From assembly GCA_963697385.1 (NCBI GenBank), contig CAVONU010000003.1, positions 400,133-464,132 of the forward strand: 64,000 bases of DNA, given 5' to 3'. This document shows positions 7,768 through 62,499 of the stretch, one piece after another (the first letter of the stretch is position 1; the number at the start of each line of letters is the position of its first letter). This DNA is from an uncultured Acidimicrobiales bacterium. GTDB taxonomy: Bacteria > Actinomycetota > Acidimicrobiia > Acidimicrobiales > CAWCAL01. Made by a program: the position numbers and the translations under genes. The notes below the pieces were generated by a model, which saw only the letters and a program-made list of their open reading frames with translations, had not been told where the DNA came from and ran no database searches.

Positions 7768-7792
7768 CCCACGTTACGGGCATGCTGGGGGC

Positions 7793-9055: not shown

Positions 9056-9073
9056 GTGGCCGGGCGTGACCGA

Positions 9074-12564: not shown

Positions 12565-12571
12565 GCTCGGT

Positions 12572-14557: not shown

Positions 14558-14669
14558 GTGGTTCGAGGGCTCCGATCGGAGACGGGGTGCACAACGCTAT
14601 CGGCGGCCGGGGTCCGGGCTGCAGCAATGTGCAGTAGAAACGGGGCATGCCCTCCCCCGTCAGCACCCC

Positions 14670-19349: not shown

Positions 19350-20352
19350 CACCGCCCGGCGTCGGATCCACTCCGGGCAGGCTGCCGATCTCGAGCCCGG
19401 CGAGGTTCGACGTGCCCTCGAAGAGCACCCGCCCGCGTTCGCGCACGGTGCAGTGGAGCCGGCCGGCGAGGTGCTCGAAGTCGGTGTCGACGTTGCGCCG
19501 CTCGGCTGGGAGGGGCACGGGAAGCACGTGGGGCTCGAGGCCGGCCCCGTCCCCCTCCAGATCGATCCGGTAGCGCAGGGAGCGTGCCTGCAGCGACCAT
19601 CGACCGGGCGAGACGTCGGATCGCACCGGCGTCGGCGGGGTGAGACGGATCACGCGGTCGTCGATGCGGACGACGATGCCGGACACCAGGCGGGCGATCG
19701 GCCCCAACGAGAGCAGCCCACCGGAGAAGGCCACCGACACGTCGGCGCCGTCGAAATCGTGCGCCTGACCCCACCACCATCGATCCGGGAAGCCCGCACC
19801 CCAGTTCCGTTCGCAGTAGAGCGTGGCGCGATCGAAGGACCATCGATCGGCTTCGTGCGTGACGGTTCCGCTCGCCGATCCACCCAAGCGGTACGGATGC
19901 CAGTACTGATTGAGGAACGGCACGGACGAGAACACGCCACCGCCACCCAGGGCCCGGGGCCAGCGATACGGATCGGCGAAGGACAGGTCGAGGTGCAGAT
20001 CGTCCAGGTCGACCCGGAGCCGCTCGGGCGTTGCCGCGAAGCGGGCGTCGTCGGTCGGTCCGGCCACGAGGTCGAACCGGGTCCGGTCGGCGTGCGCCGC
20101 GTCCAACGCGGCCGCTCGCACCACGCCGCCCGGGTGCAGCGCCACGGCGACCGTCGCCCAGTCCCCGGCCGGGTGCCGATTGACGCCGCACAGCGCGACC
20201 ATCACCCGGTCGTGCGCTGCGTCGGTCGCCCGCCAGAACCACCCCTCCATCTCGGTGCCGTGCGAGGGGACCGGATCACCGAACGGTACGTCGGCACCGG
20301 TCCGCCGAAAGGCGCGGAGTGCAGCGGCGGCGAGCCCTCCGGCGATCGTCAG
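19342..20352 (-). CDS. tocopherol-cyclase-like family protein
   Basis: 'SHGTEMEGWFWR' matches the (F/M)EGWYFR box and 'LYCERNWGAGFPDRWWWGQA' matches the EKNWGxxFPxxWxWxQ box of VTE1-type tocopherol cyclases. The start is uncertain: CTG 20352 (CTGA overlap with the upstream stop), ATG 20250, or GTG 20418. GTG 20418 would add an Arg-rich plus hydrophobic N-terminus. Confidence 0.7.
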   Translation of the reverse strand: MTIAGGLAAAALRAFRRTGADVPFGDPVPSHGTEMEGWFWRATDAAHDRVMVALCGVNRHPAGDWATVAVALHPGGVVRAAALDAAHADRTRFDLVAGPTDDARFAATPERLRVDLDDLHLDLSFADPYRWPRALGGGGVFSSVPFLNQYWHPYRLGGSASGTVTHEADRWSFDRATLYCERNWGAGFPDRWWWGQAHDFDGADVSVAFSGGLLSLGPIARLVSGIVVRIDDRVIRLTPPTPVRSDVSPGRWSLQARSLRYRIDLEGDGAGLEPHVLPVPLPAERRNVDTDFEHLAGRLHCTVRERGRVLFEGTSNLAGLEIGSLPGVDPTPGGVR

Positions 20353-22490
20353 CCCCCGAATCCATTGGGCGTGCCCTCGACGTTGGTGTCGGGAACGACG
20401 GCGACGCTCGAGAAGCACATCTCGTCGACGGTGCCCTCGTTCCAGGTGATGTACCGGGGCTCGGGCATGGTGAGGTTCGCCCGGTCCCAGGTGCACTCGA
20501 ATCGCAGCGTGTCGCCCGGTTCGATCCGAATCTTCTCGGTGGGCACGTAGTACAGCTGCCACTCGAAGCTCCACGACGGGATGTCCAGCAGAACGCGCTC
20601 GTCGGGAGTGTCCGGATTGAGCGTCATCCGGTACGCCGCACCGAACTCGTGCATGTGGCCCAGGACCGAATGCAGCGTGCCGAAGTCCGCCGCGGGGAGA
20701 TCGCAGGAGCTCGAGAACTGCGTCCCGTCGAGGTCGTCGTAGTCATCGACCCCGCCGCCACACCGACGAATGAGGGCGTCCGGGATGAACCGGGCGCTGC
20801 CGCCGTACTTCTCCGCGATGTCGTTGAGCACCGCGTCGCGGTCGCACAGCGGGCCGGACTCCTCGGGGGTGCAGGGGCCTTCGGCCGGAGTGAGGTAGCT
20901 GCGGCCACGGATGTGGGTCATGGGTTCGTCGCGGTCGGCCAGCTCACCACCGCTCAAGGTATCGAAGACCAGCACCGACTGATCCGGGGGCGTCTCCTCG
21001 TCGAAGTGGTAGTGGACCTGGTTGACGATGAAGTCGCCCGGCTCCAGGTACAGCCCTACCCCCTCGGGGTAGACCCGGGGCTGCTGGCCCGGTGCCCACC
21101 CACCGATCGAACGCACCCCGTCGGTCTCCAGATTGGAGAGGCCGAAGCAGGACCAGCCGGGGCGCCCGTCGGCGCCGTCGAGGCGGTCGGCCTCCTCGCG
21201 GCCTGCGGCCGGCACGCGGTAGATGATCGAGTGGTGCACCACCTCGTCCTGGTCCGGCTCGAACGCGATGCCGGTGACCCACTCGCCGTCGCCTTCAGGA
21301 TCGTCGATCTCGTGAACCAGGCATCGGTAGTCGTCCTGGACGGCCAGATCACCGACGTACACGCCACGGGCCGGAACGACCTGGTCGCGATCGATGTCGT
21401 CGAAGGGCGGATCGTCGGCAACCAGCTGCGTCGACGGCTCGACGTCGAGGCCTCCACCCCCGTCGGCCCAGGCGCCGATCGTTTCGATCTGGTCGTCGGT
21501 CAGTGAGAAGTCGTGCTCGAAGGCCGGGCTCAGGTCGGATGCTGGCCACGGCGGCATGTACCGGGCCGCGGTGACGAGGGCGATGTCCTCGGCGATCTCG
21601 GCCGCCTTCCCGGCCGTGTCGAGCTCGACGGTCGACCAGCCGGGTCCGCCCTCGGTGTGACAGGACACACAGCCGGACTCGAGGATGGGCTGGACCGATG
21701 CGGCGAATCGGCCTTCGCCCACCCCGGGGTCGGCGGCTGCGGTCCGCAGCACGTTCTCGTCGGGCGGGCTGATATCGCCGGCCGCTCGACCGGCCACGAG
21801 CGAGAGATCGAACCGAACCTCGTCGTCGGTATGGGCCAACCCGGCAACGTGGATGGGTCCGATGTCGTAGGTGGACATCAGGATCGTGCCGGTCATGTCG
21901 GCCCGCAACGTGTCGGCGTCGACCGACACCGGGCCGGTGAAGGTCACCGGTGCGGTGGTCTCCTTGATGGTGAGATCACCGTGGATGGTCAGTGCTCCAC
22001 TGGCCTCGGCACCGATCGCGGTGGGGATGCCGTCCACCTCGGTGGCCTCGAACGTGGCGAAGGGATGGTGCGTGGATTCGAGGAAGTCGTGGCGGATCCG
22101 CTTGTCGCGCAGGGCCGAGTCGGACTCGAACATCTCGACGTTGATGACGATGGTGCCGATCCGGCTCGCCTCGGGCTCGGCGAGACTCACGGCGATGTCC
22201 CCGGCCAGCACACTGCTGGTGCCGGTCGCGGTCCCCGTTCGACCGGCGAGAGACTCCTCGACGTGGTAGGTCAGCTCGGAGCCACCGCCAGGGGTGATCC
22301 GATAGAGGGCCTCGGTGGATGCGTCGAGATCCTCGATGGTGGGAGCGACGGCGCCGGTCGTGTGGGCGTGATCGTCCTCCAGGAGCCAGTGCCACTGTTC
22401 CTGGGTGGCCGCCGCCACGCCGACGACGCCGACGAGGAAGACGACAACGATCACCGCTCGGTGCTGGAACAGGCGCCGCAGGCGCGTCAT
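20349..22490 (-). CDS. exported tri-domain fusion: YceI-like lipid-binding domain + c-type cytochrome (CxxCH) + PHM/DBH-like type-II copper monooxygenase
   Basis: N-terminal anchor 'RAVIVVVFLVGVVGVAAA'. YceI block 'LYRITPGGGSELTYHVEE...SALRDKRIRHDFLESTHHPFATFEATEV...GDLTIKETTAPVTF'. Haem motif 'QPILESGCVSCHTEGG...ARYMPPWP'. Copper-ligand pattern 'VVHHSIIY', 'NQVHYHF', 'LGHMHEFG', 'VDEMCF'. Start is ATG 22490 (MTRLRRLF) or ATG 22544. Confidence 0.75.
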   Translation of the reverse strand: MTRLRRLFQHRAVIVVVFLVGVVGVAAATQEQWHWLLEDDHAHTTGAVAPTIEDLDASTEALYRITPGGGSELTYHVEESLAGRTGTATGTSSVLAGDIAVSLAEPEASRIGTIVINVEMFESDSALRDKRIRHDFLESTHHPFATFEATEVDGIPTAIGAEASGALTIHGDLTIKETTAPVTFTGPVSVDADTLRADMTGTILMSTYDIGPIHVAGLAHTDDEVRFDLSLVAGRAAGDISPPDENVLRTAAADPGVGEGRFAASVQPILESGCVSCHTEGGPGWSTVELDTAGKAAEIAEDIALVTAARYMPPWPASDLSPAFEHDFSLTDDQIETIGAWADGGGGLDVEPSTQLVADDPPFDDIDRDQVVPARGVYVGDLAVQDDYRCLVHEIDDPEGDGEWVTGIAFEPDQDEVVHHSIIYRVPAAGREEADRLDGADGRPGWSCFGLSNLETDGVRSIGGWAPGQQPRVYPEGVGLYLEPGDFIVNQVHYHFDEETPPDQSVLVFDTLSGGELADRDEPMTHIRGRSYLTPAEGPCTPEESGPLCDRDAVLNDIAEKYGGSARFIPDALIRRCGGGVDDYDDLDGTQFSSSCDLPAADFGTLHSVLGHMHEFGAAYRMTLNPDTPDERVLLDIPSWSFEWQLYYVPTEKIRIEPGDTLRFECTWDRANLTMPEPRYITWNEGTVDEMCFSSVAVVPDTNVEGTPNGFGG

Positions 22491-22553
22491 ACCGTCTCCC
22501 CTGGACGAGGCCGCCTGCCTGACGACTCCCCCATCTGGCGCCAATCGTACAGG

Positions 22554-30511: not shown

Positions 30512-31330
30512 GTGCGACCTCGACCCCGGCCCGCTTCGACCGCCCGGTCCCTCACGTTCGCACTCGGTGCGCTGGCTGCGTACAGCGTCGCTCTGGACCG
30601 GGCCATTCCCCGTCGATGGCATCTCGCCTCGAACCTCGCAGCAGGCGGCGCGCTGCTGACCGTTGCCCGAGCCGGCGGCATGACAGCGCGTGAGCTCGGA
30701 ACGTCTCGGGCGGCTCTCTCCCCGGGGGCGCGCCAGGGGGTCGCCGTGTCCTCCCTCATCGCTGCCGCGGTCTCGATGGCGGCCATCCCGAGGCCCTTGC
30801 GCGGTTGGTTCGCCGATGACCGGGTGCGCGCCGAGTCGCGCCGCGAGGTCGCCTATGAGACGCTGGCGCGCATCCCGATCGGAACCGCCCTGTTCGAGGA
30901 GGTTGCGTTCCGCGGCGTGCTCACCGGCCTCCTCCTCCGAACGATGGCCTCCGGCCCGGCCTACGCCGTGTCGTCAGCGATGTTCGGGCTCTGGCATGTC
31001 CTCCCCACCTTGCGCGACCACGCGGGGAGTCCGACGAGCGGTCGCGTCTCCCCTCCCGCCGCGACGATCTCGGTGGTGGTCACCACGGCCGCGGGCGGCC
31101 TCGTGTTCGAGGGACTCCGCCGTCGCAGCGACAGTCTCCTGACCCCGGTGATGGCCCATGCCACGCTCAACGCAAGCGTCTATCTGGCCGCCCAGCTCGC
31201 GCACCGGCAGATCCGGCGGGAAGCAGGGATCCCACCCCTGGGATGTCCCGCTCCGCCCAGGATGGGCGACCGGCCCCGACCAGACAACCCGGCCGATCGA
31301 GACCATAGGATGCGGCCATGGACGTCCTGA
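30512..31330 (+). CDS. CPBP-family intramembrane glutamic endopeptidase (CAAX protease/Abi family)
   Basis: The three CPBP motifs: 'FEEVAFRG' (EExxxR), 'FGLWHV' (FxxxH), 'HATLNA' (HxxxN). GTG start at 30512 is tentative. Confidence 0.8.
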   Translation: MRPRPRPASTARSLTFALGALAAYSVALDRAIPRRWHLASNLAAGGALLTVARAGGMTARELGTSRAALSPGARQGVAVSSLIAAAVSMAAIPRPLRGWFADDRVRAESRREVAYETLARIPIGTALFEEVAFRGVLTGLLLRTMASGPAYAVSSAMFGLWHVLPTLRDHAGSPTSGRVSPPAATISVVVTTAAGGLVFEGLRRRSDSLLTPVMAHATLNASVYLAAQLAHRQIRREAGIPPLGCPAPPRMGDRPRPDNPADRDHRMRPWTS

Positions 31331-32457
31331 CCCACAAAGACCTCGAAGTCCTCATGGCCGAGCGCCCCGGACCCTGCGTCTCGGTCTATCTCCCCACCCA
31401 TCCGGTCGGCCGTGGTACCACGCCCGAGGACCCCGCCACGTTCAAGTCCGTCGTGACCGAGGCAGCCCGAGCGCTCGCCGACCGCGGCCTGCGCCGACCC
31501 GACATCGACGCCTTGCTCGCGCCGGTCCTCGCGCTCGACAACAACCACTTCTGGTCGCATCAAGACGCGGGTCTCGCCGTGTTCGCGGCCCCCGGCTTCA
31601 TGCGCGAGTACCGGTTGCCGGCGTCGTTCCCGACCGGCTCGCTCGTCGCCGACCGATTCCACCTCAAGCCGATGCTGCCCCTGGTCGCCGGTGAACGATG
31701 CCTGGTCCTGGCGTTGTCCCAGGGCGCCATCCGCCTGTTGGGCGCCGACCGCTTCGGGGTGCGACCGGTCAAGCTGCGCGCCGTTCCCACCAGCCTCGAG
31801 GAGGCCCTGCGGTTCGACGATCCCGAGAAGCAGCTCCAGAGCCGGCAGTCCGGTGTCGTCGGCGGCGGCCGCCAAGCAGCAAGTTTCCACGGCCACGGTG
31901 CCGGCCTGGACGAAAAGGACCGGATCACCCGCTATCTCCGCCAGGTCGATCAGGGCCTCCACGAGGTGCTCCGCCACGAGCGGTCCCCCATGGTGCTCGC
32001 CGGCGTGGACTACCTGCTCTCGATCTACCGCTCGGTCACGAGCTATCAGCCGCTGATGGAGGACGCCATCGAGGGCAATCCCGAGCAGATCAGCGATCGG
32101 GACCTGGCCGAGCGGGCCCGGACGGTCACCGACCCCTGGTTCGCCGCGCAGCGAGAGAAGGCGGCAGCGGAGTACGCCGAAGTTGCCGGAACCGACCGGG
32201 CCAGCGACCGGCTGGACGAGGTCGTCACCGCCTCGCTGACGGGCCGGGTGGCCACCCTGTTCGTCCCGATCGGGGTCAAACGTTGGGGCCGCGCGGTCGA
32301 CGGACAGGTCCTCGAGCACGACCAACCCGAGCCCGGTGACATCGATCTGCTCGACGAGGCCGCGCTGGCCACCTGGAAGACCGACGGCCGCGTCTACGCC
32401 GTACAGCCCGAGCACATGCCGGCGGCCACCGACGTGGCGGCGATCTTCCGCTTCTGA
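31318..32457 (+). CDS. bacterial archaeo-eukaryotic release-factor-like (baeRF, family-3-like) protein
   Basis: Clean 379-aa ORF. The N-terminal pattern 'LEVLMAERPGPCVSVYLPTHPVGRG...DPATFKSVVTEA...HFWSHQDAGLAVFAAPGF...ADRFHLKPMLPLV...LVLALSQGAIRLL' matches my recollection of baeRF3-type proteins. CDS existence is high confidence. Family assignment is moderate. Confidence 0.55.
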   Translation: MDVLTHKDLEVLMAERPGPCVSVYLPTHPVGRGTTPEDPATFKSVVTEAARALADRGLRRPDIDALLAPVLALDNNHFWSHQDAGLAVFAAPGFMREYRLPASFPTGSLVADRFHLKPMLPLVAGERCLVLALSQGAIRLLGADRFGVRPVKLRAVPTSLEEALRFDDPEKQLQSRQSGVVGGGRQAASFHGHGAGLDEKDRITRYLRQVDQGLHEVLRHERSPMVLAGVDYLLSIYRSVTSYQPLMEDAIEGNPEQISDRDLAERARTVTDPWFAAQREKAAAEYAEVAGTDRASDRLDEVVTASLTGRVATLFVPIGVKRWGRAVDGQVLEHDQPEPGDIDLLDEAALATWKTDGRVYAVQPEHMPAATDVAAIFRF

Positions 32458-32686: not shown

Positions 32687-33662
32687 GTGAATCGCAGACG
32701 CGGTCGGAAACGGTTGATGGTGACCCGGGGCGGGCGAGGGCTCGTGAACCATGCCGGTGCTCGGTTGGTGTCGGACCTGGCCGACGACATCGGCCTGACG
32801 GTCGGGTTGTCGAATGCGCTCGCTTCGACCAAGCAGCGTCGTCGGGGTCACGACCGGGGTGAGGTGTTGCGGGATCTGGCGGTGATGATCGCTGATGGCG
32901 GCACCCGGACCTCGGATCTGGCGGTGCTGCGTAACCAGCCCCGCCTGTTCGAGGACGTGGCGTCGAACTCGACGGCGTGGCGAACCCTCGAGGCCATCGA
33001 TGACGCCGTGTTGGAGCAGGTCGCAGTAGCCCGCTCCCAGGCCCGTGAGCAGGCGTGGGCACGAGGGATGGATCCGGGGTTCTACGTGATCGACCTCGAC
33101 GCCACGCTGGTCGGCGCGCACTCCGAGAAAGAGGGAGCGGCACCGACCTACAAGCGCGGGTTCGGGTTCCACCCGTTGATGGCCTATCTCGACGCCACCG
33201 GCGAAGCACTGGCTGGCCGGTTGCGGCCGGGCAACGCCGGAACTCACCTTCACCGACCACGACGGCCACCGCTTCCAGGTCTGTATCACCGACCTCGCCG
33301 ACGACGACATCGCCTACCTCGAAGCCCTCTACCGGGGACGGGGACGGGTCGAACGGCGGATCGGTGACGCCAAAGACACCGGCCTCACCAACCTGCCGTC
33401 GGGACCGTTCGCCCTGAACCAGGCCTGGCTCACCACCGTGCTCATCGCCCAAGACCTCCTCGTCTGGACCCAGCACCTCTGCCTCGACGGCGACCTCGCC
33501 ACCGCCGAACCGAAACGGCTCCGCTACTGCCTGCTCCACACCGCCGCGACCATCGCCACCGGCGGCCGCAAGACCAAGCTACGCCTCGCCGGCGACTGGC
33601 CCTGGACCGACGCCCTCATCGCCGCGTTCGACCGACTCCACCACCGCCCAGCCCGCTGCTGA
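32687..33662 (+). pseudogene. IS1380-family transposase, internally deleted and frameshifted
   Basis: Frame 1 (32687..~33240): 'LVNHAGARLVSDLADDIGLT...RGHDRGEVLRDLAVMIADGG...FYVIDLDATLVGAHSEKEGAAPTYKRGFGFHPLMAYLDATGEALAGRLRPGNAG' is the IS1380 N-terminal region. Another frame (~33240..33662): 'FTDHDGHRFQVCITDLADDDIAYLEALYRGRGRVERRIGDAKDTGLTNLPSGPFALNQAWLTTVLIAQDLLVWTQ...' is the IS1380 C-terminal region. The central catalytic portion is missing. Confidence 0.8.
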
Positions 33663-33811: not shown

Positions 33812-33827
33812 GAACGGTCCGGGCTAG
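33812..33827. repeat. right terminal inverted repeat of the IS remnant
   Basis: 'GAACGGTCCGGGCTAG'. Pairs with 32563..32578. Overlaps the stop codon (33824..33826) of the adjacent glycosyltransferase gene. Confidence 0.55.
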
Positions 33828-35248
33828 CCGTCGCCGAGGACGGCCCGCATCACGCCCAGCCACTTGTCGAGGTGGGTGTCGCCCAGGTGAAGGTCGAGGG
33901 CCCGGTTCCGAGCGCCCTCGCCGAGCCGCTTGCGGAGCTCGTCATCGTCGAGGATCTCGCAGACGGCCGACCCGAACTCCTCGAGATCGGCGGGATCCCG
34001 GATCAGCCGTCCGGTCTCCCCGTCGATGACCTGGTCGACGATGCCACCCACCGCACTGGCCACCACCGGTGTGCCCTTGAGCATCGCCTCCGCCACCGTG
34101 AGGCCGAATCCTTCCGCCAGGCTCTTCTGGGCCACGATGCTGGCGTGGCGCTGGAGGGCGTTCACGATCGCCGCGTTCTCCTCCAGATCGTGCATCGGAA
34201 GGCAGACCAACTGGACCCGACTCCGGATGGCGTGCGGCAACTCTCGCCACTCGTTCCAGGCGTCCTGCAGCACCTGGCCCCCCTCGGGATCGTCGGCAAC
34301 CGCTGAGACCACGGGGCCGGCCAGGACGAGCTGCGCACTGCGCCCGGAGTCGATGTACTTCGCGAACGACTCCATGACCCCGGTCATGTCCTTCATCACG
34401 TCCCAACGAGACACCTGCACCAGCATCGGAACGTCGGGGGTCGGTGACGGCCCGGTTCGGAAGACGTCGCAGTAGCTCTCGACGCGACTGGGGGTTCCGT
34501 CGATCCGTTCGAAGGACGTGTCACCGCTCCTCCCCGCCAGGATGCCGACCTGGGTGAGGATCGCCTCGACCTTCTCGTCGGACATCGCCTGGTTCTTCGC
34601 CGAGAACGGATCGATCGATGGCCAGATGACCGAGCACTGATCGGCCGCGATCCACGGCGGAGGGAACCGGGCGTCGGTGAACACGTAGTGATCGACGAAG
34701 GGCTCCAGGTACGGGCGGAGGAAGTCCCACGCCTCGAGGCTGTTGGCGTTCTGTTCGTCGATGCCGACGTGGCAGCGCCAGACGACCTGACACCCCATCG
34801 CCTTCGCGTGCTCGGCCAGGCCCGCGGTCTGCGGATCGTGGAGCACGACGATGTCACCCGGCCGGGCGGACTCGGCCAGCCCGTTGGCGTTGGGCTCCAG
34901 CGCTTGGCGGTAGATGACGTGCTCCGCTTCGCCCAGCGGTCCGCCGTCGCCCACACCACCGTAGAGATGGTTGTGGATGCGCTTCGTCAGCGCGAAGAAC
35001 GGCGGATCACCCTCGATCACCATCCAGCGGGCGTCGACCCCGACCCCCCGCACGTACCCGAGCAGCACGTGCAGCATCTCGGCCACCCCGCCCCCGGCAG
35101 CGGTCGAGTTGACGTTGATGACACTGCGGCCGTCCAGCAGCGACGATGCCTCGGTGGCCGCCACCACCGCGAGGGCATCCGCCCGTTGCGGGCCGATGAT
35201 GTCAGCGAACTGGAGTGGGTCTCTGGATCGAATGGTCACCTTCTGCAT
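33824..35248 (-). CDS. GT4 glycosyltransferase, TreT-like (trehalose synthase-type)
   Basis: 'VINVNSTAAGGGVAEMLHVLLGYVRGVGVDARWMVIEGDPPFFALTKRIHNHLYG' resembles NDP-glucose-dependent trehalose synthase TreT. C-terminal GT-B motif 'SLAEGFGLTVAEAMLKGTPVVASAVGGI'. ATG at 35248. Confidence 0.75.
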   Translation of the reverse strand: MQKVTIRSRDPLQFADIIGPQRADALAVVAATEASSLLDGRSVINVNSTAAGGGVAEMLHVLLGYVRGVGVDARWMVIEGDPPFFALTKRIHNHLYGGVGDGGPLGEAEHVIYRQALEPNANGLAESARPGDIVVLHDPQTAGLAEHAKAMGCQVVWRCHVGIDEQNANSLEAWDFLRPYLEPFVDHYVFTDARFPPPWIAADQCSVIWPSIDPFSAKNQAMSDEKVEAILTQVGILAGRSGDTSFERIDGTPSRVESYCDVFRTGPSPTPDVPMLVQVSRWDVMKDMTGVMESFAKYIDSGRSAQLVLAGPVVSAVADDPEGGQVLQDAWNEWRELPHAIRSRVQLVCLPMHDLEENAAIVNALQRHASIVAQKSLAEGFGLTVAEAMLKGTPVVASAVGGIVDQVIDGETGRLIRDPADLEEFGSAVCEILDDDELRKRLGEGARNRALDLHLGDTHLDKWLGVMRAVLGDG

Positions 35249-35295
35249 GCACAGATCATGCCCGATGCAGACCGGATCCGCTCGGACCTGCAGGT

Positions 35296-38200
35296 TCAGC
35301 CGCGCGTGAGCTGGCCGAGCGACCGCACGGCCACCGAGACCCGGGCCAGGTCTTGCACGCCGGACGCCTTGATGTCGTCGAAGGTCTGGCGGCACCGACC
35401 GGCGGTCACTTCGTTGACGTGGAGCCAGTTCTCGACGGCCGCCTCGGCCGTCGGGAGCGCGCCGGCACCGGCGTGGTCGAGTACGACGGCGGTGAGCGCC
35501 GCATGCTCACGGAAGAATTCGTCGCGAAGCGCACCCCGGGCCATCGTCTCCCAATAGTCGGTCCGCGGCAGCTCGACCAGGAGCTGCCGGAGCCACGACA
35601 ACTCCAGTTGGTCGTCGAGGGCGCTGCTGATGGCCGCGACCAGACGCAGCTCGACCCCGGTCCTCGCCGCCACCTGGCTGAGCTCGAGGAACCCGAACGC
35701 CCGCCCGGATGCCTCGACCCGCCGCGCGAGCGCATCGGGGACGCCGGCGTCCGTCAGTGCCGCGACGTTCGCCTCGGACTCCGGCGCGGATGGATCATCG
35801 GCGCCGACGACGATGTCATGCAGCTCCCGGACCGGCGCCGAATAGGTGGCGACGACCGCCTCGATGTCGATGGGCTGGGGCTCGTTGCGCAGGAGCCACC
35901 GGGCGGCCCGTTCCCCCAGTCGTTTGACGTCGAGCTGGAGCTGGGTCCGCACGTCGGCCGGAATCTCGGGTCCGAGCTCGGCGATCGCATCCCAGAGGCT
36001 GTCCAGGTCGTAGATCCGGGACGCTGCCGTGTGGGCTCGGGCGATGTCGGCCACCGTCGCGGATGTCTCGCGCATGAGCCGGTGCACCATCGAGATGCCG
36101 CCTCGGTTGACCAGCTGGTTGGCCACGGCCGTGGCCACCAGCTCCGCTCGCAGCGGATGGGCGGAGACCAGGTCGGGATACCGCTCCTGGATCTGCCGGG
36201 GGAAGTACGAGAGCAGCGCCCCGTCATAGGTCGGGTCGGACGCCAGCGGAGATTCGACGAGGTCGTCGGCGAGGAGGTTCTTCGTGAAGGCGAGCAGGAC
36301 GGCGAGCTCGGGTCGCGTGAGCCCGCGGTCGCCGCTCTGCCTCGTCGCCAGGTCCTGGTCGGACGGGAGCGCCTCGAGCTCGCGATCCAGTCCCGCCCAT
36401 TCGGCAAGGACGGCCATCAGGCGCTGATGGGCCTCGACCATCCCGGGGGCCTGCGCGACCGCAGCGGTCAGTGTCTCGTTCTGTGCATCGTTGTTGGCCA
36501 GCACCTGCGCGCACACCTCGTCGGCCATCTCGTCGAGGAGTTGGTCGCGGTGTTTGCGCGTCAGGTCGCCGCTTCCGACCGCCCGGGAGAGCAGGATCTT
36601 GAGGTTGACCTCGCGGTCGGAACAGTCGACACCTCCGGAGTTGTCGATCGCATCGGTGTTGATCCGGCCCCCGGCCAGGGCGAACTCGATCCGTCCCCGT
36701 TGGGTGACCCCGAGGTTGCCCCCCTCGCCGATCACACGGCAGCGAAGCTGATCGGCGTCGATGCGGACGGTCTCGTTGCTCCGATCTCCCACCTCTGCGT
36801 GCGACTCTTCCGACGCCTTCACGTAGGTGCCGATCCCACCGTTCCACAGCAGATCGACCGGGGCGCGGAGCACCGCCCGGATCAGCTCGTTGGGTGGCAG
36901 CTCCTCCACCGCCGGGTCGAGCCCGAGGGCCTCGGAGATCTGCTCGCTGATGTCGATCGATTTCGCCGCACGGGAGAAGATGCCACCTCCCGGGGAGATG
37001 AGGGACCGGTCATAGTCGTCCCACGACGAGCGCGGCATCTCGAAGAGCCTCCGCCGTTCTTCGAACGTACGAGCCGGGTCGGGCGACGGGTCGATGAAGA
37101 TGTGGCGATGATCGAAGGCGGCGACCAGGCGGATCATCCGGCTGCGCTGCATCCCGTTTCCGAACACATCGCCGGACATGTCCCCGATCCCGGCCACGGT
37201 GAACTCGGTCCGATCGACGTCGAGCCCCATTCCGCTGAAATGGTGCCGGACCGAGACCCAGGCCCCGCGCGAGGTGATGGCGAGCGCCTTGTGGTCGTAT
37301 CCGCTCGATCCGCCCGAGGCGAAGGCGTCGCCGAGCCAGAACCTGCGTGCTTCGGCGATCTCGTTGGCGATGTCGGAGAACGATGCGGTGCCCTTGTCCG
37401 CCGCCACGACCAGGTAGGGGTCGTCCGCGTCCCGGCGGACGACGCGGTCCGGGCCGACGACCGCGCCGTCGACGCGATTGTCGGTCAGGTCGAGCAGGGC
37501 CCCGATGAAGGTCCGGTAGCAGTCGACGACTTCGAGGGCGGTCGCGTCGCGGTCGCCATCGTCCGGGAGCCGGCGGGCCACGAACCCACCCTTCGCTCCG
37601 GCGGGGACGATCACCGAGTTCTTGACCGACTGGGCCTTCATCAGGCCGAGGATCTCGGTGCGGTAGTCCTCCATCCGGTCGGACCAGCGCAGCCCGCCGC
37701 GCGCCACCCGCCCGGAGCGCAGATGCACCCCCTCGGTGCGAGGGGAATAGACGTAGATCTCCGCGGTCGGTATCGGCTTCGGGACATCCGGGACCTCGGA
37801 CAGATCGAGCTTGAAGGCAAGAGCGGGCCGCGGCTCGCCGTCGTCGGCTCGCTGCCAGTGGTTGGTCCGGGTCGTCGCCTCGACGAGGGCCAGGAAGGAT
37901 CGCAGGATCCGGTCGGCGTCCAGGCTGGGTACCTGATCGATCGCCTCGACGATCTCGCTCCGCTTGTCCGAGGCGGCGACGTCGTCGTGCAGGTCGGGGT
38001 GGAACCGGAACCGGAACAGCTCGACCAGCAGCGAAGCGACCCGAGGATTGCGGTTGACGGTCTCGCGGACGTAGGCCGGACTGAAGTGGGAACCGACCTG
38101 CACCAGATACCGCGCGTAGGCCCGGAGCACCGTGACGTCCTGCCAGGTGAGCCCGGCCACCGTGACCAGCCGTGCGAAGCTGTCGCTCTCGGCCCGATCC

Positions 38201-40140
38201 GACCACACGGCGAGAATGGCGTCACGGAACCGACCTCGCCCCTCGGAGTCGAGCTCGCGGTCCAAGCGGATCCCGATGTCGTAGACGAACCGCGGCCGTT
38301 CTCCCTCGACCCGCACCTCGTACGGGATCTCGTCGATCACGATGGCGCCGAGGTCGTGGAGCAGCGGTATGAACTGCGTCAGGGTGATCGGTCGACCCAG
38401 CCGGTAGAGCTTGCAGCGCAGCAGCGTCTCGTCGGCCTCGAGCGGGCGGTGCATCGAGACGTCGAGATCCTCCTCGGCGAGTCTCTCGAGATGCTCGATG
38501 TCGCTGACCGCGGCCTCGGCGAAGACGTTGGAGCGGTAGGCGGCGGAGAACGCCGACCCGTACCGGTCGAGAAGGGCGAGTCCATGGTGCTCGCCGTGCG
38601 CCGAGATGAGCGCCGCCCTCAGGTAGTCGTCCCAGGTCCGGATGGCCCGGCTCAGGCGATTCTGGACGGCGGTCAGATCGGGCAGTTCCTCCCACGTGTT
38701 CGGATCGGTGTAGATCACGAAGTGGATGCGGGCCAACGAGTCGTTCGAGATCTCGATGCTGAATCGCGACGAGCGGCCCTGATACGCGTCCATCAGGATG
38801 CGTTCGATCTCCAGCCTGACGTCGGTGCTGTGGCGGTCCCGGGGCACGAAGACGAGACAGGAGAGGAATCGGCCGAAATCGTCCCGGCGGATGAGCAGGC
38901 TGACCTGACGCCGGTCGCGCAGGTCGAGGATGTCCAGGGCCATCTCCTCCAGCCGGTCGACCCCGGTCTGGATCAGCTCGTCCCTGGGATGGAGTTGCAT
39001 GATGTTGAGCAGGCGACTCCGATCGTGGCTGCCGGGGGCGAAGTTCGAGCGGCGCACGACCTCGGTCACCTTGGCCCGCACCACGGGGATGTCCTCGATG
39101 CGGCCGCTGTACACCGCCGACGTGAAGAGACCCAGGAATCGACGCTCGCCGGTCACCCTGCCGTCGGGCCCGATCTCCTTGATCCCGATGTAGTCCAGCG
39201 GGACCGCCCGGTGCACGGTCGAGACGGTGTTGGCCTTCGTCAGGTTGAGGATGTTCGGCCGCCGGGCCCGCTCGGTGATCTCGGGCGGAAGCTGGTCGAG
39301 GCGCCGGGTCGTCGCCTCTCCCTGTCGCATCGTTCCGAGACCGGTCCCGGGACGGGAGACGATCAGGGGATGATCGGGATCGTCGCGGAAGTCGTACTCG
39401 CGGTACCCCACGAAGGTGAAGTGGCCTGCCTCCATCCAGCGCAACAGAGCAGCGACCTCGGCGGCATCGGTCCCGACCTGGGCCTGGTACCGAGGCGCCG
39501 GGTCGACGGCCCAGTCCTCGAGCTCGTACGCCAGGGCGAGCGCCTGCTCCCGCATCGGCATCCAGTCCGACACGGCCGCCCTGACATCGCCCATCACGTC
39601 GAGCGTGTCCTGCCGTAGCCGATCCACGTTGGCTCCACTGGCCACCCGATCGACCTCGAGGTGGAGGAAGGATTCGGCCACGGCGACCCCGCCGCCGCCG
39701 TCGTCGGATGGTTCGATCCCCATGACCCGTCCGTCCTCGTCGCGCTCGACCGCGGCGATCGGATGGACCAGCACGTGCACCTGGCGGCCTTGCACCTCCA
39801 GCAGCGCCAGGACCGAGTCGACGATGAAGGGCATGTCGTCGGACACGACGTCGATCACGGTGTGGCCACTCGACCATCCGTCCTCGTCGATGTCGGGGTT
39901 GTAGACCTGCACCAGGCTCTCGTCCGGTGCGCGCTGGCCGGCCAGCTGCAGGTGGCGCACCGCAGCGCCGTAGAGGTCGATCGGATCCTTGCCGGCCAGA
40001 TCCTGCGGGGCGACCCGCTCGTAGTAGAGCCGGATGAGACGTTCGGCGTCATCCGGTGGGATGCGCGTGTACCGCTGACGGGTGAGGGCGGCCACCGCGT
40101 CGAGGAGCGCGTCTTTCAGCTGTTCGGACGTATCGGTCAT
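35296..40140 (-). CDS. NAD-specific glutamate dehydrogenase, large (~180 kDa) class
   Basis: 1,614-aa ORF. The N-terminus 'RLIRLYYERVAPQDL' and the catalytic region 'VPAGAKGGFV...VVAADKGTASFSDIAN...GFDHKALAITSRGAW...GIGDMSGDVFGNGM' are typical of bacterial large NAD-GDH. Confidence 0.95.
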   Translation of the reverse strand: MTDTSEQLKDALLDAVAALTRQRYTRIPPDDAERLIRLYYERVAPQDLAGKDPIDLYGAAVRHLQLAGQRAPDESLVQVYNPDIDEDGWSSGHTVIDVVSDDMPFIVDSVLALLEVQGRQVHVLVHPIAAVERDEDGRVMGIEPSDDGGGGVAVAESFLHLEVDRVASGANVDRLRQDTLDVMGDVRAAVSDWMPMREQALALAYELEDWAVDPAPRYQAQVGTDAAEVAALLRWMEAGHFTFVGYREYDFRDDPDHPLIVSRPGTGLGTMRQGEATTRRLDQLPPEITERARRPNILNLTKANTVSTVHRAVPLDYIGIKEIGPDGRVTGERRFLGLFTSAVYSGRIEDIPVVRAKVTEVVRRSNFAPGSHDRSRLLNIMQLHPRDELIQTGVDRLEEMALDILDLRDRRQVSLLIRRDDFGRFLSCLVFVPRDRHSTDVRLEIERILMDAYQGRSSRFSIEISNDSLARIHFVIYTDPNTWEELPDLTAVQNRLSRAIRTWDDYLRAALISAHGEHHGLALLDRYGSAFSAAYRSNVFAEAAVSDIEHLERLAEEDLDVSMHRPLEADETLLRCKLYRLGRPITLTQFIPLLHDLGAIVIDEIPYEVRVEGERPRFVYDIGIRLDRELDSEGRGRFRDAILAVWSDRAESDSFARLVTVAGLTWQDVTVLRAYARYLVQVGSHFSPAYVRETVNRNPRVASLLVELFRFRFHPDLHDDVAASDKRSEIVEAIDQVPSLDADRILRSFLALVEATTRTNHWQRADDGEPRPALAFKLDLSEVPDVPKPIPTAEIYVYSPRTEGVHLRSGRVARGGLRWSDRMEDYRTEILGLMKAQSVKNSVIVPAGAKGGFVARRLPDDGDRDATALEVVDCYRTFIGALLDLTDNRVDGAVVGPDRVVRRDADDPYLVVAADKGTASFSDIANEIAEARRFWLGDAFASGGSSGYDHKALAITSRGAWVSVRHHFSGMGLDVDRTEFTVAGIGDMSGDVFGNGMQRSRMIRLVAAFDHRHIFIDPSPDPARTFEERRRLFEMPRSSWDDYDRSLISPGGGIFSRAAKSIDISEQISEALGLDPAVEELPPNELIRAVLRAPVDLLWNGGIGTYVKASEESHAEVGDRSNETVRIDADQLRCRVIGEGGNLGVTQRGRIEFALAGGRINTDAIDNSGGVDCSDREVNLKILLSRAVGSGDLTRKHRDQLLDEMADEVCAQVLANNDAQNETLTAAVAQAPGMVEAHQRLMAVLAEWAGLDRELEALPSDQDLATRQSGDRGLTRPELAVLLAFTKNLLADDLVESPLASDPTYDGALLSYFPRQIQERYPDLVSAHPLRAELVATAVANQLVNRGGISMVHRLMRETSATVADIARAHTAASRIYDLDSLWDAIAELGPEIPADVRTQLQLDVKRLGERAARWLLRNEPQPIDIEAVVATYSAPVRELHDIVVGADDPSAPESEANVAALTDAGVPDALARRVEASGRAFGFLELSQVAARTGVELRLVAAISSALDDQLELSWLRQLLVELPRTDYWETMARGALRDEFFREHAALTAVVLDHAGAGALPTAEAAVENWLHVNEVTAGRCRQTFDDIKASGVQDLARVSVAVRSLGQLTRG

Positions 40141-53717: not shown

Positions 53718-54257
53718 ATGACCGACGAGGACGAACAGGGCCGGCCGGAACCGCCGCTCGCAGCGGACGAGGCGGCGACCGCCCTCGGCTTCCTGGACTA
53801 CCAGCGGGCGACGCTGGCCTGGAAATGCGCGAACCTCGGCCCGGCCGGCTTCCGGGCCAAGGTCGGCATCTCGGAGATGACGTTGGGCGGACTGCTGAAG
53901 CACATGGCGTACGTGGAGGACCACTGGTTCTCCCGGTCGCTGCACGGGAACCAGCCCGCGCCCCCGTGGGACACGGTGGACTGGGACGCGGACCGTGACT
54001 GGGAGTGGAACACCGCCGCCGACGACACGCCCGAACAGCTCTTGACCTTGTGGGAGGGCGCCGTGGCACGCTCCCGCAACCTCGCGACCCAGGCCATGGC
54101 CGAGGGTGGCCTGGACCGGTCGGCTGAGAAGGTCTGGCCCGACGGGCGGGCCCCGACCCTCCGTTGGATCGTGCTCCACATGATCGAGGAGTACGCCCGG
54201 CACAACGGTCACGCCGATCTCCTGCGGGAGTCGGTCGACGGCCAGACCGGCGAATGA
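53718..54257 (+). CDS. DinB-family (DUF664/mycothiol-transferase-like) protein
   Basis: 'FLDYQRATLAWKCANL...LLKHMAYVEDHWF...LRWIVLHMIEEYARHNGHADLLRESVDG' is the classical actinobacterial DinB/DUF664 pattern. Confidence 0.85.
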   Translation: MTDEDEQGRPEPPLAADEAATALGFLDYQRATLAWKCANLGPAGFRAKVGISEMTLGGLLKHMAYVEDHWFSRSLHGNQPAPPWDTVDWDADRDWEWNTAADDTPEQLLTLWEGAVARSRNLATQAMAEGGLDRSAEKVWPDGRAPTLRWIVLHMIEEYARHNGHADLLRESVDGQTGE

Positions 54258-61156: not shown

Positions 61157-61519
61157 CTACGCCACGAGGTGCTCGGGACGGTCAGCTGGATCCTTGTCGA
61201 TCGGCATCGTCCACTGCTCACCTGGCAGGTTCGTGGCCAACACGATCCGCACCGGTGGCCCCGCCAGATTGCGGTGCAGCCAGCCGGCAGGCGCCTGGAG
61301 TCGGCATCCAGGCTGGATCTCGGTGACGTTGCCGTTCTCATCGCTGAAGGAACCGGTCCCCGAGATCACCCACGACACCGCCTCGAACTCGTGCCAGTGC
61401 AGCGGCTCGTCCTCCTCGACGGTGAGGTCGAACGCAAGGCAGTGGAGACCCAACTCGGCCCCCTGAGCGAGGGCGTCCTCCTCGCTGAGCGGCTCATCCT
61501 GACGGAACTCGTACTCCAT
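61157..61519 (-). CDS. cupin-domain protein
   Basis: 120 aa. 'LHWHEFEAVSWVISGTGSF...GCRLQAPAGWLHRN' fits the two cupin motifs. Confidence 0.8.
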   Translation of the reverse strand: MEYEFRQDEPLSEEDALAQGAELGLHCLAFDLTVEEDEPLHWHEFEAVSWVISGTGSFSDENGNVTEIQPGCRLQAPAGWLHRNLAGPPVRIVLATNLPGEQWTMPIDKDPADRPEHLVA

Positions 61520-61668
61520 GACCTGCGCTCCCCTCGGACGGTCCCGACCGGAGCGCCCTCGGCGCCAACCCTATCCGTCGGAGGTGGCCCCCGACCGCGC
61601 CATCAGGCCGGCTTCACGGGACCGACAGACAGGTAGGAAAAAGCCCATTGCAAGATAGGCTTTCGGCC

Positions 61669-62499
61669 ATGTCCTTCGAGAACCTGTTCGACTACACCGC
61701 CACCCAGTACGAGATCGTCCTCAGCGTCTTCACCCTGACTGCGGCCGTGTTCGCCGCTGTGCTGGTGTACTCCCTGGCCACGGCGAAGTCGATCTCGCCG
61801 CGCTACCGCATCACGTCCTACCTCACCGGCGTCGTCATGGTGAGCGCCGTGCTCGAGCTCGGCCTGCTTGCGCTCCGGTGGTCCGGAGCGTTCTCGTGGT
61901 CGGGCAGCAGCTACACGCTCACCGGGAGTCTGTTCTCCAACGGGTTCCGGTACATGAACTGGAGCATCGACGTTCCGGTGCTCCTCACTCAGCTGCTGGT
62001 CGTGGCAGGGATCACCGGAGGCATCTTCTTTCGCCGGTGGGCGTCCTTCGTGGTCGCCGGCCTGGCGATGATCTGGACGGGCTATGTCGGCCAATTCGAC
62101 GAGGTCGATGGTGGGGCGCAGTTCTGGATCTGGGGCGCCATCAGCACCGTGTTCTACCTATGGCTGCTGTTCGTCGCTTGGCAGACCATCCAGGACGCCC
62201 GCCAGCGGTCATCGGCCTCGGTGAGCCGGCTGTTCTCGGCTGTGTGGATCCTGTTCCTGGTGTCCTGGACGATCTACCCCCTCGCCTACCTGATGCCCCA
62301 GATCTGGGACACGGCCGACGGCGTCGTCCTCCGGAACCTGATCTACAGCTTCGCCGACATCAGCTCCAAGGCCGTCTACGGCATCCTGCTGGCCGTCATC
62401 GCCCAGAAGGTGAGCGCCGAGGAGGGCTATGAGCCGGCCATCGACGCCGACTTCTGGTCGGACCGGACGCCCGACCGCGAGCCGGAGAGCGTCTCGTGA
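61669..62499 (+). CDS. microbial (type-1) rhodopsin with NDQ motif, KR2-like putative light-driven Na+ pump
   Basis: Seven TM segments. Helix C 'NGFRYMNWSIDVPVLLTQLLVV' versus KR2 'NGYRYLNWLIDVPMLLFQILFV' (N, D, Q at the BR D85/T89/D96 positions). Helix G 'SFADISSKAVYGILL' versus KR2 'TIADVSSKVIYGVLL' (Schiff-base Lys). Also 'WTGYVGQFDEV', 'WGAISTVFY', 'VWILFLVSWTIYPLAYLMP'. ATG 61669 (MSFENLF) is preferred over TTG 61648. Confidence 0.9.
   Translation: MSFENLFDYTATQYEIVLSVFTLTAAVFAAVLVYSLATAKSISPRYRITSYLTGVVMVSAVLELGLLALRWSGAFSWSGSSYTLTGSLFSNGFRYMNWSIDVPVLLTQLLVVAGITGGIFFRRWASFVVAGLAMIWTGYVGQFDEVDGGAQFWIWGAISTVFYLWLLFVAWQTIQDARQRSSASVSRLFSAVWILFLVSWTIYPLAYLMPQIWDTADGVVLRNLIYSFADISSKAVYGILLAVIAQKVSAEEGYEPAIDADFWSDRTPDREPESVS

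Follow-up and report, generated by a model that had tools for sequence, protein, structure and literature searches.

Sodium-pumping rhodopsins with the NDQ motif (Asn, Asp, and Gln at bacteriorhodopsin [BR] positions 85, 89, and 96) include KR2 and ErNaR of Erythrobacter sp. HL-111, the latter being the type member of NDQ Subgroup 2, which is defined by Glu at the position of KR2 L74 (Podoliak et al. 2024, PMC11006869). This residue, conserved in all of Subgroup 2, serves in ErNaR (E64) as an extra Schiff-base counterion with a very short hydrogen bond to the NDQ aspartate (E64-D105) and renders both the spectrum and Na+ pumping nearly pH independent; ErNaR is also more Na+ selective than KR2, has negligible H+ current at pH 5 to 9, and carries A and S at KR2 positions 61 and 263 (PMC11006869). 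The text and supplements of that paper, with a data set of 219 sequences, name no actinobacterial taxa. NDQ rhodopsins have already been published for the actinomycete family Geodermatophilaceae, and MspDR of Modestobacter was assayed (10.1101/2024.05.16.594530). The rhodopsins described for the order of the Acidimicrobiia are DTE-type (Asp, Thr, and Glu) "acidirhodopsins", and we found no literature on NDQ or Na+-pump rhodopsins in Acidimicrobiia. Here, we report the family, motif, clade, and fold of a rhodopsin encoded in a 64,000-nucleotide stretch (the window) of contig CAVONU010000003.1 from an uncultured Acidimicrobiales bacterium (GCA_963697385.1), together with an adjoining gene for an NTF2-fold protein; by homology to ErNaR and KR2, we propose the ion, its direction, and the steps of transport.

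Sequences and analyses

All plausible candidate open reading frames (ORFs) of the window were scanned with Pfam. Relatives were drawn from one-genome-per-species GTDB contigs (numbered L001 onward), among which the 49 best loci form the Acidimicrobiia set. Residues were mapped in a MAFFT alignment of the window protein with KR2, ErNaR, Nonlabens ClR, and Gloeobacter rhodopsin (GR); the KR2, GR, and ClR references were checked to be 100% identical to PDB entries 7q36, 6nwd, and 5fjg, and the ErNaR sequence was taken from the printed search alignment. An extended residue census covered 48 Acidimicrobiia, 14 other actinomycetotal, and 8 cyanobacterial or Gemmatimonadales sequences. For the partner gene, metagenome contigs were additionally chosen by NTF2-like alignment alone (80 loci, L087 to L166).

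The rhodopsin and its motif

The rhodopsin ORF (61648..62499, + strand) opens with TTG in the ORF listing and has an internal ATG at 61669; since the homologues all begin MSFEN, MTFEN, or MNFEN, translation begins at this ATG, giving a product of 276 amino acids (aa). It is a type-1 microbial rhodopsin, with a Pfam Bac_rhodopsin match (PF01036; E = 4.5e-34; 118 bits against a cutoff of 24.6), the helix G lysine K234, and an AlphaFold (AF2) model in which a short N-terminal helix precedes seven long ones (mean predicted local distance difference test [pLDDT] score, 87.6). Similarity to ErNaR (E = 1.7e-70) and KR2 (5.7e-51) is far above chance. The closest solved relatives by score are ErNaR (8qle/9tbd/9tbf, 241 bits), then the NTQ-type ClR (200 bits) and KR2 (177 bits), and the predicted fold also best matches ErNaR (9tbd/9tbf/8qle; template-modeling [TM] score, 0.88 to 0.90; root mean square deviation, 1.8 to 1.9 Å; 46% identity). 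An alignment of 30 sequences with identities down to 54% has 80 invariant columns, and such strong purifying conservation argues for a functional protein. The G+C content at third codon positions (GC3) is 0.92, matching that of host genes. Apparent long C-terminal extensions or fusions in two relatives (L026, 487 aa; L037, 490 aa) were rejected as artifacts of tblastn alignments read past the stop, true lengths being 270 to 286 aa.

Helix C reads GFRYMNWSIDVPVLLTQ and helix G SFADISSKAVYG. N97, D101, and Q108 correspond to KR2 N112, D116, and Q123, and this NDQ set is invariant in 48/48 Acidimicrobiia members. D230 and the Schiff-base lysine K234 correspond to KR2 D251 and K255, R94 to R109, S233 to S254, and the release cavity E4/E145/R222 to E11/E160/R243; D230, R94, and the three cavity residues are likewise invariant across the clade. 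Together, the window protein and all 48 members keep the full set of residues to which Na+ pumping is ascribed in KR2 and ErNaR (KR2 E11, S70, R109, N112, W113, D116, Q123, E160, R243, D251, S254, and K255, plus Glu at L74). S50 and A242 stand at KR2 N61 and G263: Ser at position 61 is found in 47 of 48 Acidimicrobiia, 14/14 other Actinomycetota, and 8/8 cyanobacterial or Gemmatimonadales sequences, and the 263 column of NDQ proteins bearing Glu at KR2 position 74 (E74) holds A, G, or S. The initial annotation, which had described a 276-aa protein with seven transmembrane helices, N/D/Q in helix C, D and K in helix G, and S and A at KR2 positions 61 and 263, agrees with these results at each point.

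That annotation took KR2 as its comparator and read the KR2-equivalent residues correctly, but it missed E63, which aligns with KR2 L74 and ErNaR E64 (VMVSAVLELG in the window, VMVSAALELG in ErNaR), and with it the closest solved relative, ErNaR. Glu occupies this column in 48/48 Acidimicrobiia and 14/14 other actinomycetotal sequences. Judged by E63 in the alignment, the window rhodopsin is an ErNaR-like member of NDQ Subgroup 2. Loss or substitution of KR2 D102, which belongs to the interprotomer Na+ site, is given as characteristic of that subgroup (PMC11006869); the column, which falls in the variable and least certainly aligned B-C loop, is Ser in the window and Asp in 24/48 clade members. 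The pattern of DTE pumps is absent: the window has N/D/Q plus E, against D/T/E plus His at the KR2 L74 column in GR, Kin4B8, and the rhodopsins of L082, L083, and L085, and it is 26% identical to GR. Absent too is the NTQ pattern, with D101 in the window where the chloride pump NM-R3 has T.

Relatives, clade, and host

An identical (100%) protein occurs on ENA metagenome contig ERZ25039514 contig_43789. The rhodopsin shares at least 66% identity with more than 110 protein clusters, the named ones being Acidimicrobiia, Acidimicrobiales, or Actinomycetota metagenome-assembled genomes (MAGs), and the 49 best loci come from Acidimicrobiales, Ilumatobacteraceae, Acidimicrobiaceae, or unclassified Actinomycetota MAGs; the best (L001) encodes a 91% identical rhodopsin and is syntenic with the window. 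Next come Modestobacter, Blastococcus, Micromonospora, and Pseudokineococcus (52 to 58% identity), followed by cyanobacteria and Gemmatimonadales (45 to 51%) and by Phycisphaerales and Planctomycetaceae (39 to 44%). The high-GC actinobacterial type of genome noted initially is borne out by these relatives, by a G+C content of 66 to 71% across the window, and by a mycothiol S-transferase gene (53718..54257), which fits an actinobacterial host. The same annotation called the host unusual, which was an overstatement given the published Geodermatophilaceae NDQ rhodopsins and the more than 100 database clusters that belong to this Acidimicrobiia clade.

In a neighbor-joining tree (300 bootstraps, support from bipartition counts; a distance method on a limited reference set), the Acidimicrobiia clade was recovered in 100% of bootstraps, all NDQ proteins grouped at 88% with ClR outside, and NDQ plus ClR separated from the DTE outgroup (GR and Kin4B8) at 100%. 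On this tree and its motif, the window rhodopsin belongs to the NDQ clade of the Na+-pump rhodopsin (NaR) lineage and to neither the DTE nor the NTQ group. The earlier placement in the NaR lineage is thereby upheld, a position in a DTE clade being opposed by the 100% split. The Acidimicrobiia NDQ clade looks like a new lineage of a known type that has not been described as such.

Transported ion

By homology to ErNaR and KR2, the protein would be a light-driven outward Na+ (or Na+/H+) pump, a reading to which we assign a probability of roughly 0.6; Na+ is the most likely principal substrate, and H+ transport is possible at low Na+ or acidic pH. Na+ is favored because the window protein is ErNaR-like at KR2 positions H180, T216, and V246. 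The H180 column is Trp in the window and in all Acidimicrobiia, as in ErNaR (W177), and V, F, L, or I in Geodermatophilaceae and Micromonospora. The T216 column holds T in the window, S in ErNaR, and M or L in the latter two groups; at V246 the window and ErNaR share I, against T in those two groups. The aligned residues at these interior positions, which separate ErNaR from MspDR, place the window on the side of ErNaR.

In the proposed mechanism, all-trans retinal would be bound to K234, and its isomerization by light would send the Schiff-base proton to D101, preorganized through a short hydrogen bond with the extra counterion E63. Cytoplasmic Na+ would enter via the S50/A242 entrance and Q108, pass the deprotonated Schiff base, be held transiently near N97 and D230, and exit via the E4/E145/R222 cavity. 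E63 should keep the pump active over a wide pH range, as in ErNaR. The pump would be coexpressed with the conserved cytoplasmic NTF2-fold protein, and retinal would be either supplied by the environment or made by genes located elsewhere in the genome.

S50 and A242 had been taken initially as grounds for suspecting an altered ion selectivity. Since S and A are usual at these positions in E74-bearing NDQ proteins, and since ErNaR is Na+ selective with A and S, the two residues alone do not predict such a change; the suspicion itself is legitimate on other grounds, namely, the H+ pumping of MspDR.

Several points weigh against Na+ pumping. By identity, the closest assayed type is Modestobacter (53 to 54%, versus 46% for ErNaR), whose MspDR, the sole actinobacterial homologue assayed, was mainly an H+ pump, and all assayed NDQ relatives fall outside the Acidimicrobiia clade. 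In the neighbor-joining tree, that clade is sister to ErNaR with 45% bootstrap support, and all E74 (Subgroup 2) proteins form one clade in 6% of replicates. Clade-specific changes (H30 to S, G, or A; S64 to T; Y108 to F) are present, and ErNaR R19 is without a counterpart, the window having Leu (read by eye from the alignment). Near the rhodopsin gene we found no Na+-coupled transporter or other Na+-cycle gene, and neither the 62 kb upstream nor the 10 kb downstream holds a blh or crt gene for the supply of the chromophore. As to H30, in KR2 it bonds Y154 of the neighboring protomer, stabilizing the pentamer required for Na+ pumping; H30K, H30L, and Y154F weaken pumping, and H30A stays pentameric (PMC6457933). 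The window has S19 at this position and keeps the tyrosine (Y139), a combination that would resemble the tolerated H30A case.

The strongest competing explanation, which we consider less likely, is a mainly pH-dependent outward H+ pump like MspDR, with Na+ transported marginally or at very high salt and pH alone, so that actinomycetotal NDQ+E74 proteins would serve the proton motive force or pH homeostasis and not Na+ extrusion. With the same E/S/A pattern (E74, S61, A263), MspDR in Escherichia coli whole cells at 100 mM salt pumped H+ at pH 5 to 6 whether the salt was NaCl or KCl and showed only weak Na+ efflux with carbonyl cyanide m-chlorophenylhydrazone at pH 6 to 7; its authors implicate the L74, N61, and G263 positions and the change of KR2 H180 to Val (10.1101/2024.05.16.594530). 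The greater identity to Modestobacter points the same way, as do the 38% of bootstraps that join the Acidimicrobiia clade with other Actinomycetota instead of ErNaR and the competitive H+ uptake of which KR2 and ErNaR are capable (PMC11006869). The MspDR result is, however, a single whole-cell assay, ErNaR with the same E/small/small pattern has negligible H+ current, and the window is ErNaR-like, not Geodermatophilaceae-like, at H180, T216, and V246, the first of which is the residue suspected in the preprint. Outward Na+ pumping is preferred on these grounds. With Gln at BR D96, the protein has no cytoplasmic proton donor, and H+ pumps of that kind are generally slow.

With the window protein, the E74-bearing NDQ subgroup gains a large and coherent clade, apparently unstudied so far, of Acidimicrobiia, a class of soils, sediments, and saline or soda waters. 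The assayed relatives disagree (ErNaR strictly Na+, MspDR mostly H+), and the clade, which sets ErNaR-like residues at H180, T216, and V246 and natural H30S/G and S64T changes in an actinobacterial background, is a natural test case for Na+/H+ selectivity. Residues that set the Na+/H+ preference in Subgroup 2 bear on the design of pH-insensitive optogenetic silencers.

Retinal supply

Pfam scans across the window ORFs found no phytoene synthase, phytoene desaturase, lycopene cyclase, polyprenyl synthase, or β-carotene dioxygenase (BCD/Blh), and tblastn with three Blh proteins of related loci gave no match in either the window or the 8 kb past its end, in keeping with the initial report that the window lacks blh and crt genes. 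A BCD/Blh-type gene adjoins the NDQ rhodopsin gene in Geodermatophilaceae, Micromonospora, and a planctomycete and in 0/49 Acidimicrobiia loci (Table 1); one Modestobacter locus (L048) has two rhodopsin-blh pairs, one DTE and one NDQ, 3.5 kb apart.

These absences bear on whether the gene might be intact but silent for want of endogenous retinal, a recently transferred or decaying remnant of a light island. We regard this as improbable. Blh and crt genes are missing from 72 kb, a blh neighbor is seen in the groups just named (in some planctomycete loci), and the window has neither the CarH/LitR regulator of relatives L002 to L004 and L006 nor the heliorhodopsin of L001; yet the rhodopsin of the Acidimicrobiia loci, none of which has an adjacent blh, is under strong purifying selection clade-wide, and a GC3 of 0.92, like that of host genes, gives no sign of recent transfer. 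The part inspected is, moreover, ~13% of a contig of 566 kb, so that a blh gene may be located outside it, and use of exogenous retinal is documented in other actinobacteria (PMC9728251).

The NTF2-fold partner gene

The GTG start of the downstream gene overlaps the rhodopsin TGA stop by 4 nucleotides (nt) (GTGA), so the two genes are probably cotranscribed and translationally coupled. The Pfam match of its product is weak (SnoaL_3, 6.7e-8). The AF2 model (pLDDT, 88.1) has helices at residues 22 to 33, 37 to 43, and 65 to 81 followed by four long strands, and its Foldseek matches (CaMKII hub, scytalone dehydratase, and bile-acid 7-alpha-dehydratase; probability 1.0, TM score ~0.65) are generic; as modeled, it is an NTF2 cone fold, with three N-terminal helices on a curved antiparallel sheet. 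The family counts 468 members at E ≤ 1e-5, mostly of Actinomycetota, is 155 to 175 aa long, and has 61 invariant columns in 14 sequences at 56 to 78% identity, including the charged motifs VRDHDF, CDDDFGIVD, TDS, FRQ, FDC, and RWH.

A profile hidden Markov model of the partner found the gene in 13 of the 49 Acidimicrobiia NDQ loci, always directly beside the rhodopsin gene (gap ≤172 nt) and never elsewhere within ±10 kb. Three arrangements occur: overlapping downstream, convergent downstream (L006 and L010), and upstream on the same strand (L030, L031, L033, L034, and L036). Three of five distant family members on long contigs sit 0.1 to 1.6 kb downstream of a rhodopsin gene, in each case of the DTE, GR-like proton-pump type and ~30% identical to that of the window. 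L085, from the cultivable Pengzhenrongella phosphoraccumulans, has the order CarH, DTE rhodopsin, acetyltransferase/AAA, NTF2. In the NTF2-seeded scan, a rhodopsin was present in 48/80 loci, with a gap of 54 to 222 nt in 43 of the 48, and in 19 of the 30 loci having at least 1.2 kb on both sides. As a genomic observation, the linkage, which covers NDQ and DTE rhodopsins across Actinomycetota, is solid; we found no literature linking such an NTF2-fold protein to rhodopsins.

Two simple explanations of the linkage were rejected. The partner is not specific to NDQ pumps, as most seeded partners are DTE rhodopsins and identity among the NTF2 proteins does not follow the type of rhodopsin beside them. 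Nor does it stand in for a missing Blh as a simple rule, since L116 (BCD, photolyase-like, CarH, rhodopsin, and NTF2 genes) and L153 (in the order lycopene cyclase, BCD, unannotated gene, rhodopsin, NTF2) have both. By tblastn, a divergent, light-sensing CarH/LitR-type regulator gene (MerR-type HTH_17 plus B12-binding domains) accompanies the rhodopsin-NTF2 pair in 23/80 seeded loci and in the NDQ relatives L002 to L004 and L006; its position upstream of many of the pairs implies B12-dependent light induction of the operon.

Least probable among the readings of the pair is a light sensor and transducer with pumping secondary, as in Anabaena sensory rhodopsin and ASRT: the soluble-protein gene does overlap the rhodopsin stop by 4 nt and adjoins rhodopsins in 48 of the 80 independently seeded loci, and its product is rich in invariant charged surface-type residues and has an oligomerization hub domain among its nearest structural relatives, but the full pump residue set (counterions, R94, the E/E/R cavity, and Q108) does not vary within the clade, members of this NTF2 family also stand beside ordinary DTE rhodopsins of the proton-pump type that are ~30% identical to the window's, and a partner within 10 kb in 13/49 Acidimicrobiia NDQ loci indicates that the rhodopsin works without an adjacent copy. 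We tentatively suggest, at somewhat less than even odds, that the NTF2 protein is a dedicated, undescribed accessory factor of actinobacterial rhodopsins within a light-regulated CarH/LitR-rhodopsin-NTF2 module serving DTE or NDQ pumps, of which the window would be a minimal two-gene version on an uncharacterized Acidimicrobiia NDQ branch. The protein might bind or deliver retinal or carotenoid, or repair its isomers, within the hydrophobic cone of the NTF2 fold, or it might regulate or assemble the pump; a function in retinal or carotenoid handling or in pump regulation is speculation. If the protein does handle retinal or modulate the pump, it would be a new component in a supposed one-protein, one-cofactor system. 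The rhodopsin-linked NTF2-fold gene, a side finding, is more novel than the rhodopsin.

Gene neighborhood

The divergent intergenic region between the cupin gene and the rhodopsin gene is the presumed promoter, and the cupin gene occupies the position that the regulator has upstream of the rhodopsin in relatives. No obvious Shine-Dalgarno sequence was seen in this region, and scans for a sigma-70 consensus and intrinsic terminators around the operon gave nothing, a result that is uninformative for a high-GC actinobacterium. No heliorhodopsin, CarH/LitR regulator, or Blh gene was found elsewhere in the window.

Farther upstream lies a photolyase/cryptochrome-related gene, whose product has the FAD-binding helical domain alone and a final 149 aa with no Pfam match even at E = 10. 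A circularly permuted photolyase, suggested by a resemblance, by eye, of the C terminus to the N-terminal alpha/beta domain, was not supported, the sole match of residues 297 to 354 to photolyase 23 to 85 being nonsignificant (E = 3.7e3). The family recurs near rhodopsin genes (L001, L011, L018, L085 [8139-8522, cut], and L116 [1116-2348, - strand]); we regard the gene as loosely linked rhodopsin context, with no functional coupling implied. Homologues of the neighboring short-chain dehydrogenase/reductase (SDR) lie within ~2.3 kb of rhodopsin/NTF2 pairs in some loci (L025, L034, and L078; cluster 3 of the NTF2-seeded loci), a weak contextual link. Heliorhodopsin genes (Pfam PF18761; 3.9e-92 for L123) occur within a few kilobases of NDQ or DTE rhodopsin genes in related loci, in L001 directly after the photolyase-like gene. 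The region from 57.6 to 63.0 kb looks like a reduced "light island", with a leishmanolysin-like protease and the cupin interposed and the regulator, heliorhodopsin, and Blh absent.

In Micromonospora loci, a second type-1 rhodopsin of 231 aa is encoded beside the NDQ gene and transcribed divergently from it. Its helix C reads RYADWVVTTPLLLVAL, with D/T/A at BR 85/89/96, and the lack of a carboxylate proton donor suggests a sensory-like or otherwise unusual function.

Table 1. Positions of the rhodopsin, its key residues, and neighboring genes in the window, and of related genes in the loci compared
Feature	Position	Strand	Basis or remark
NDQ Subgroup 2 (ErNaR-like) rhodopsin, 276 aa	61669..62499	+	Pfam, alignment, AF2 model, fold match
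S19 (KR2 H30)	61723-61725	+	Alignment
S50 (KR2 N61)	61816-61818	+	Alignment
E63 (KR2 L74, ErNaR E64)	61855-61857	+	Alignment
R94	61948-61950	+	Alignment
N97	61957-61959	+	Alignment
D101	61969-61971	+	Alignment
Q108	61990-61992	+	Alignment
D230	62356-62358	+	Alignment
K234 (Schiff base)	62368-62370	+	Alignment
A242 (KR2 G263)	62392-62394	+	Alignment
NTF2-fold (SnoaL_3/DUF4440-like) soluble protein, 157 aa	62496..62969	+	Pfam, junction, adjacency counts, AF2
Divergent intergenic region, 149 bp, presumed promoter	61520..61668	.	Between cupin gene and rhodopsin
Cupin gene	61157..61519	-	Regulator position upstream of rhodopsin
Photolyase/cryptochrome-related protein, 408 aa	58629..59855	+	FAD-binding helical domain only, residues ~36-216
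NAD-dependent epimerase/dehydratase-family SDR, 321 aa	57617..58582	+	Pfam
NTF2 gene beside rhodopsin	Window, L002-L004, L006, L010, L026, L030-L036, L041, L044, L082, L083, L085, and 48 of L087-L166		
BCD/Blh loci	L048 10800-11837 (+), 7439-8434 (+); L049, L051, L054; L052, L053, L056, L060; L077 1515-2666 (+)		
CarH/LitR-like MerR-type regulator	L083 2251-3024, L085 564-1442, L116 3167-3949, L102 3210-4001	-	HTH_17 + B12-binding
Heliorhodopsin	L001 4580-5413 (+), L011 8865-9686 (-), L058 10833-11609 (+), L123 5122-5880 (-)		
Heliorhodopsin, tblastn matches	L048, L050, L051, L056, L089, L101, L106, L124		tblastn
Second Micromonospora rhodopsin	L053 9099-9797, L056 9129-9824, L058 9123-9818, L060 9128-9823	-	

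Other features of the window

A tocopherol-cyclase-like ORF (19342-20742, - strand; PF14249, 4.3e-23) lies beside or overlaps the gene for a 731-aa YceI-like polyisoprenoid-binding-domain protein (20349-22544, - strand); the pair is isoprenoid related and 40 kb from the rhodopsin, with gene boundaries that are uncertain (crude ORF calls). A baeRF family 3/7 (archaeo-eukaryotic release-factor-like) protein (31318-32457, + strand) is followed by a truncated DDE transposase (32687-33367, + strand; PF13701, first 194 of 435 profile positions), and the locally lower GC3 suggests a small mobile or degraded insertion. A glycogen/alpha-glucan cluster (3968-14596) encodes a 4-alpha-glucanotransferase, a GlgB-like branching enzyme, a glucose-1-phosphate nucleotidyltransferase, a second CBM48 alpha-amylase-family enzyme, and a DUF3417 glucan phosphorylase, and a trehalose-synthase-like glycosyltransferase is found at 33824-35506. 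The 1,614-aa NAD-specific glutamate dehydrogenase (35296-40140, - strand), with full ACT1-3/HM1-3 regions, is ordinary and a useful host phylogenetic marker.

Comparison with known systems

ErNaR and the window protein have the NDQ motif plus E in common. Both carry small residues at KR2 positions 61 and 263, Leu at Q78, and Trp at H180, and both keep the R/D/D/K core and the E/E/R cavity. ErNaR differs in identity (46%), in host (an alphaproteobacterium versus monoderm Acidimicrobiia), in having H20, R19, S54, and Y97 where the window has Ser, Leu, Thr, and Phe, and in a helix D-E loop that is ~8 residues shorter in the window (gaps in the search alignment).

The proteins of Geodermatophilaceae (MspDR; Tarlachkov et al. 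2020, 2024 preprint), Micromonospora, and Pseudokineococcus are, like that of the window, actinomycetotal, with NDQ plus E74, S61, A or G263, and 52 to 58% identity. These proteins have V or F at H180, M or L at T216, T at V246, and H30 kept, where the window has W, T, I, and S; their loci have a BCD/Blh neighbor and no NTF2 neighbor (0/14), the reverse of the Acidimicrobiia loci.

KR2 (Dokdonia eikasta/Krokinobacter eikastus), of Subgroup 1, has the NDQ motif, R109, D251, K255, S70, S254, E11/E160/R243, and W113/W215/Y218 in common with the window, as well as the fold of seven helices plus an N-terminal helix (TM score, 0.85 to 0.88). From KR2 to the window, at 39% identity, the differences are L74 to E, N61 to S, G263 to A, Q78 to L, H30 to S, H180 to W, and D102 to Ser; Na+ pumping by KR2 is pH dependent, and KR2 pumps H+ without Na+. 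The NTQ chloride pump of Nonlabens marinus (NM-R3/ClR) belongs to the same "omega rhodopsin" lineage (39% identity; 200 bits, above KR2; TM score, 0.91) but has T for D101 and I for E63, pumps anions, and lies outside the NDQ clade (88% bootstrap support).

Anabaena sensory rhodopsin and ASRT resemble the window in gene order, a rhodopsin gene followed by a small soluble-protein gene in one operon. ASRT is a beta-sandwich, not an NTF2 fold, and the sensory rhodopsin is without the pump residues; unlike that pair, the NTF2 partner described here accompanies pump-type rhodopsins of two classes.

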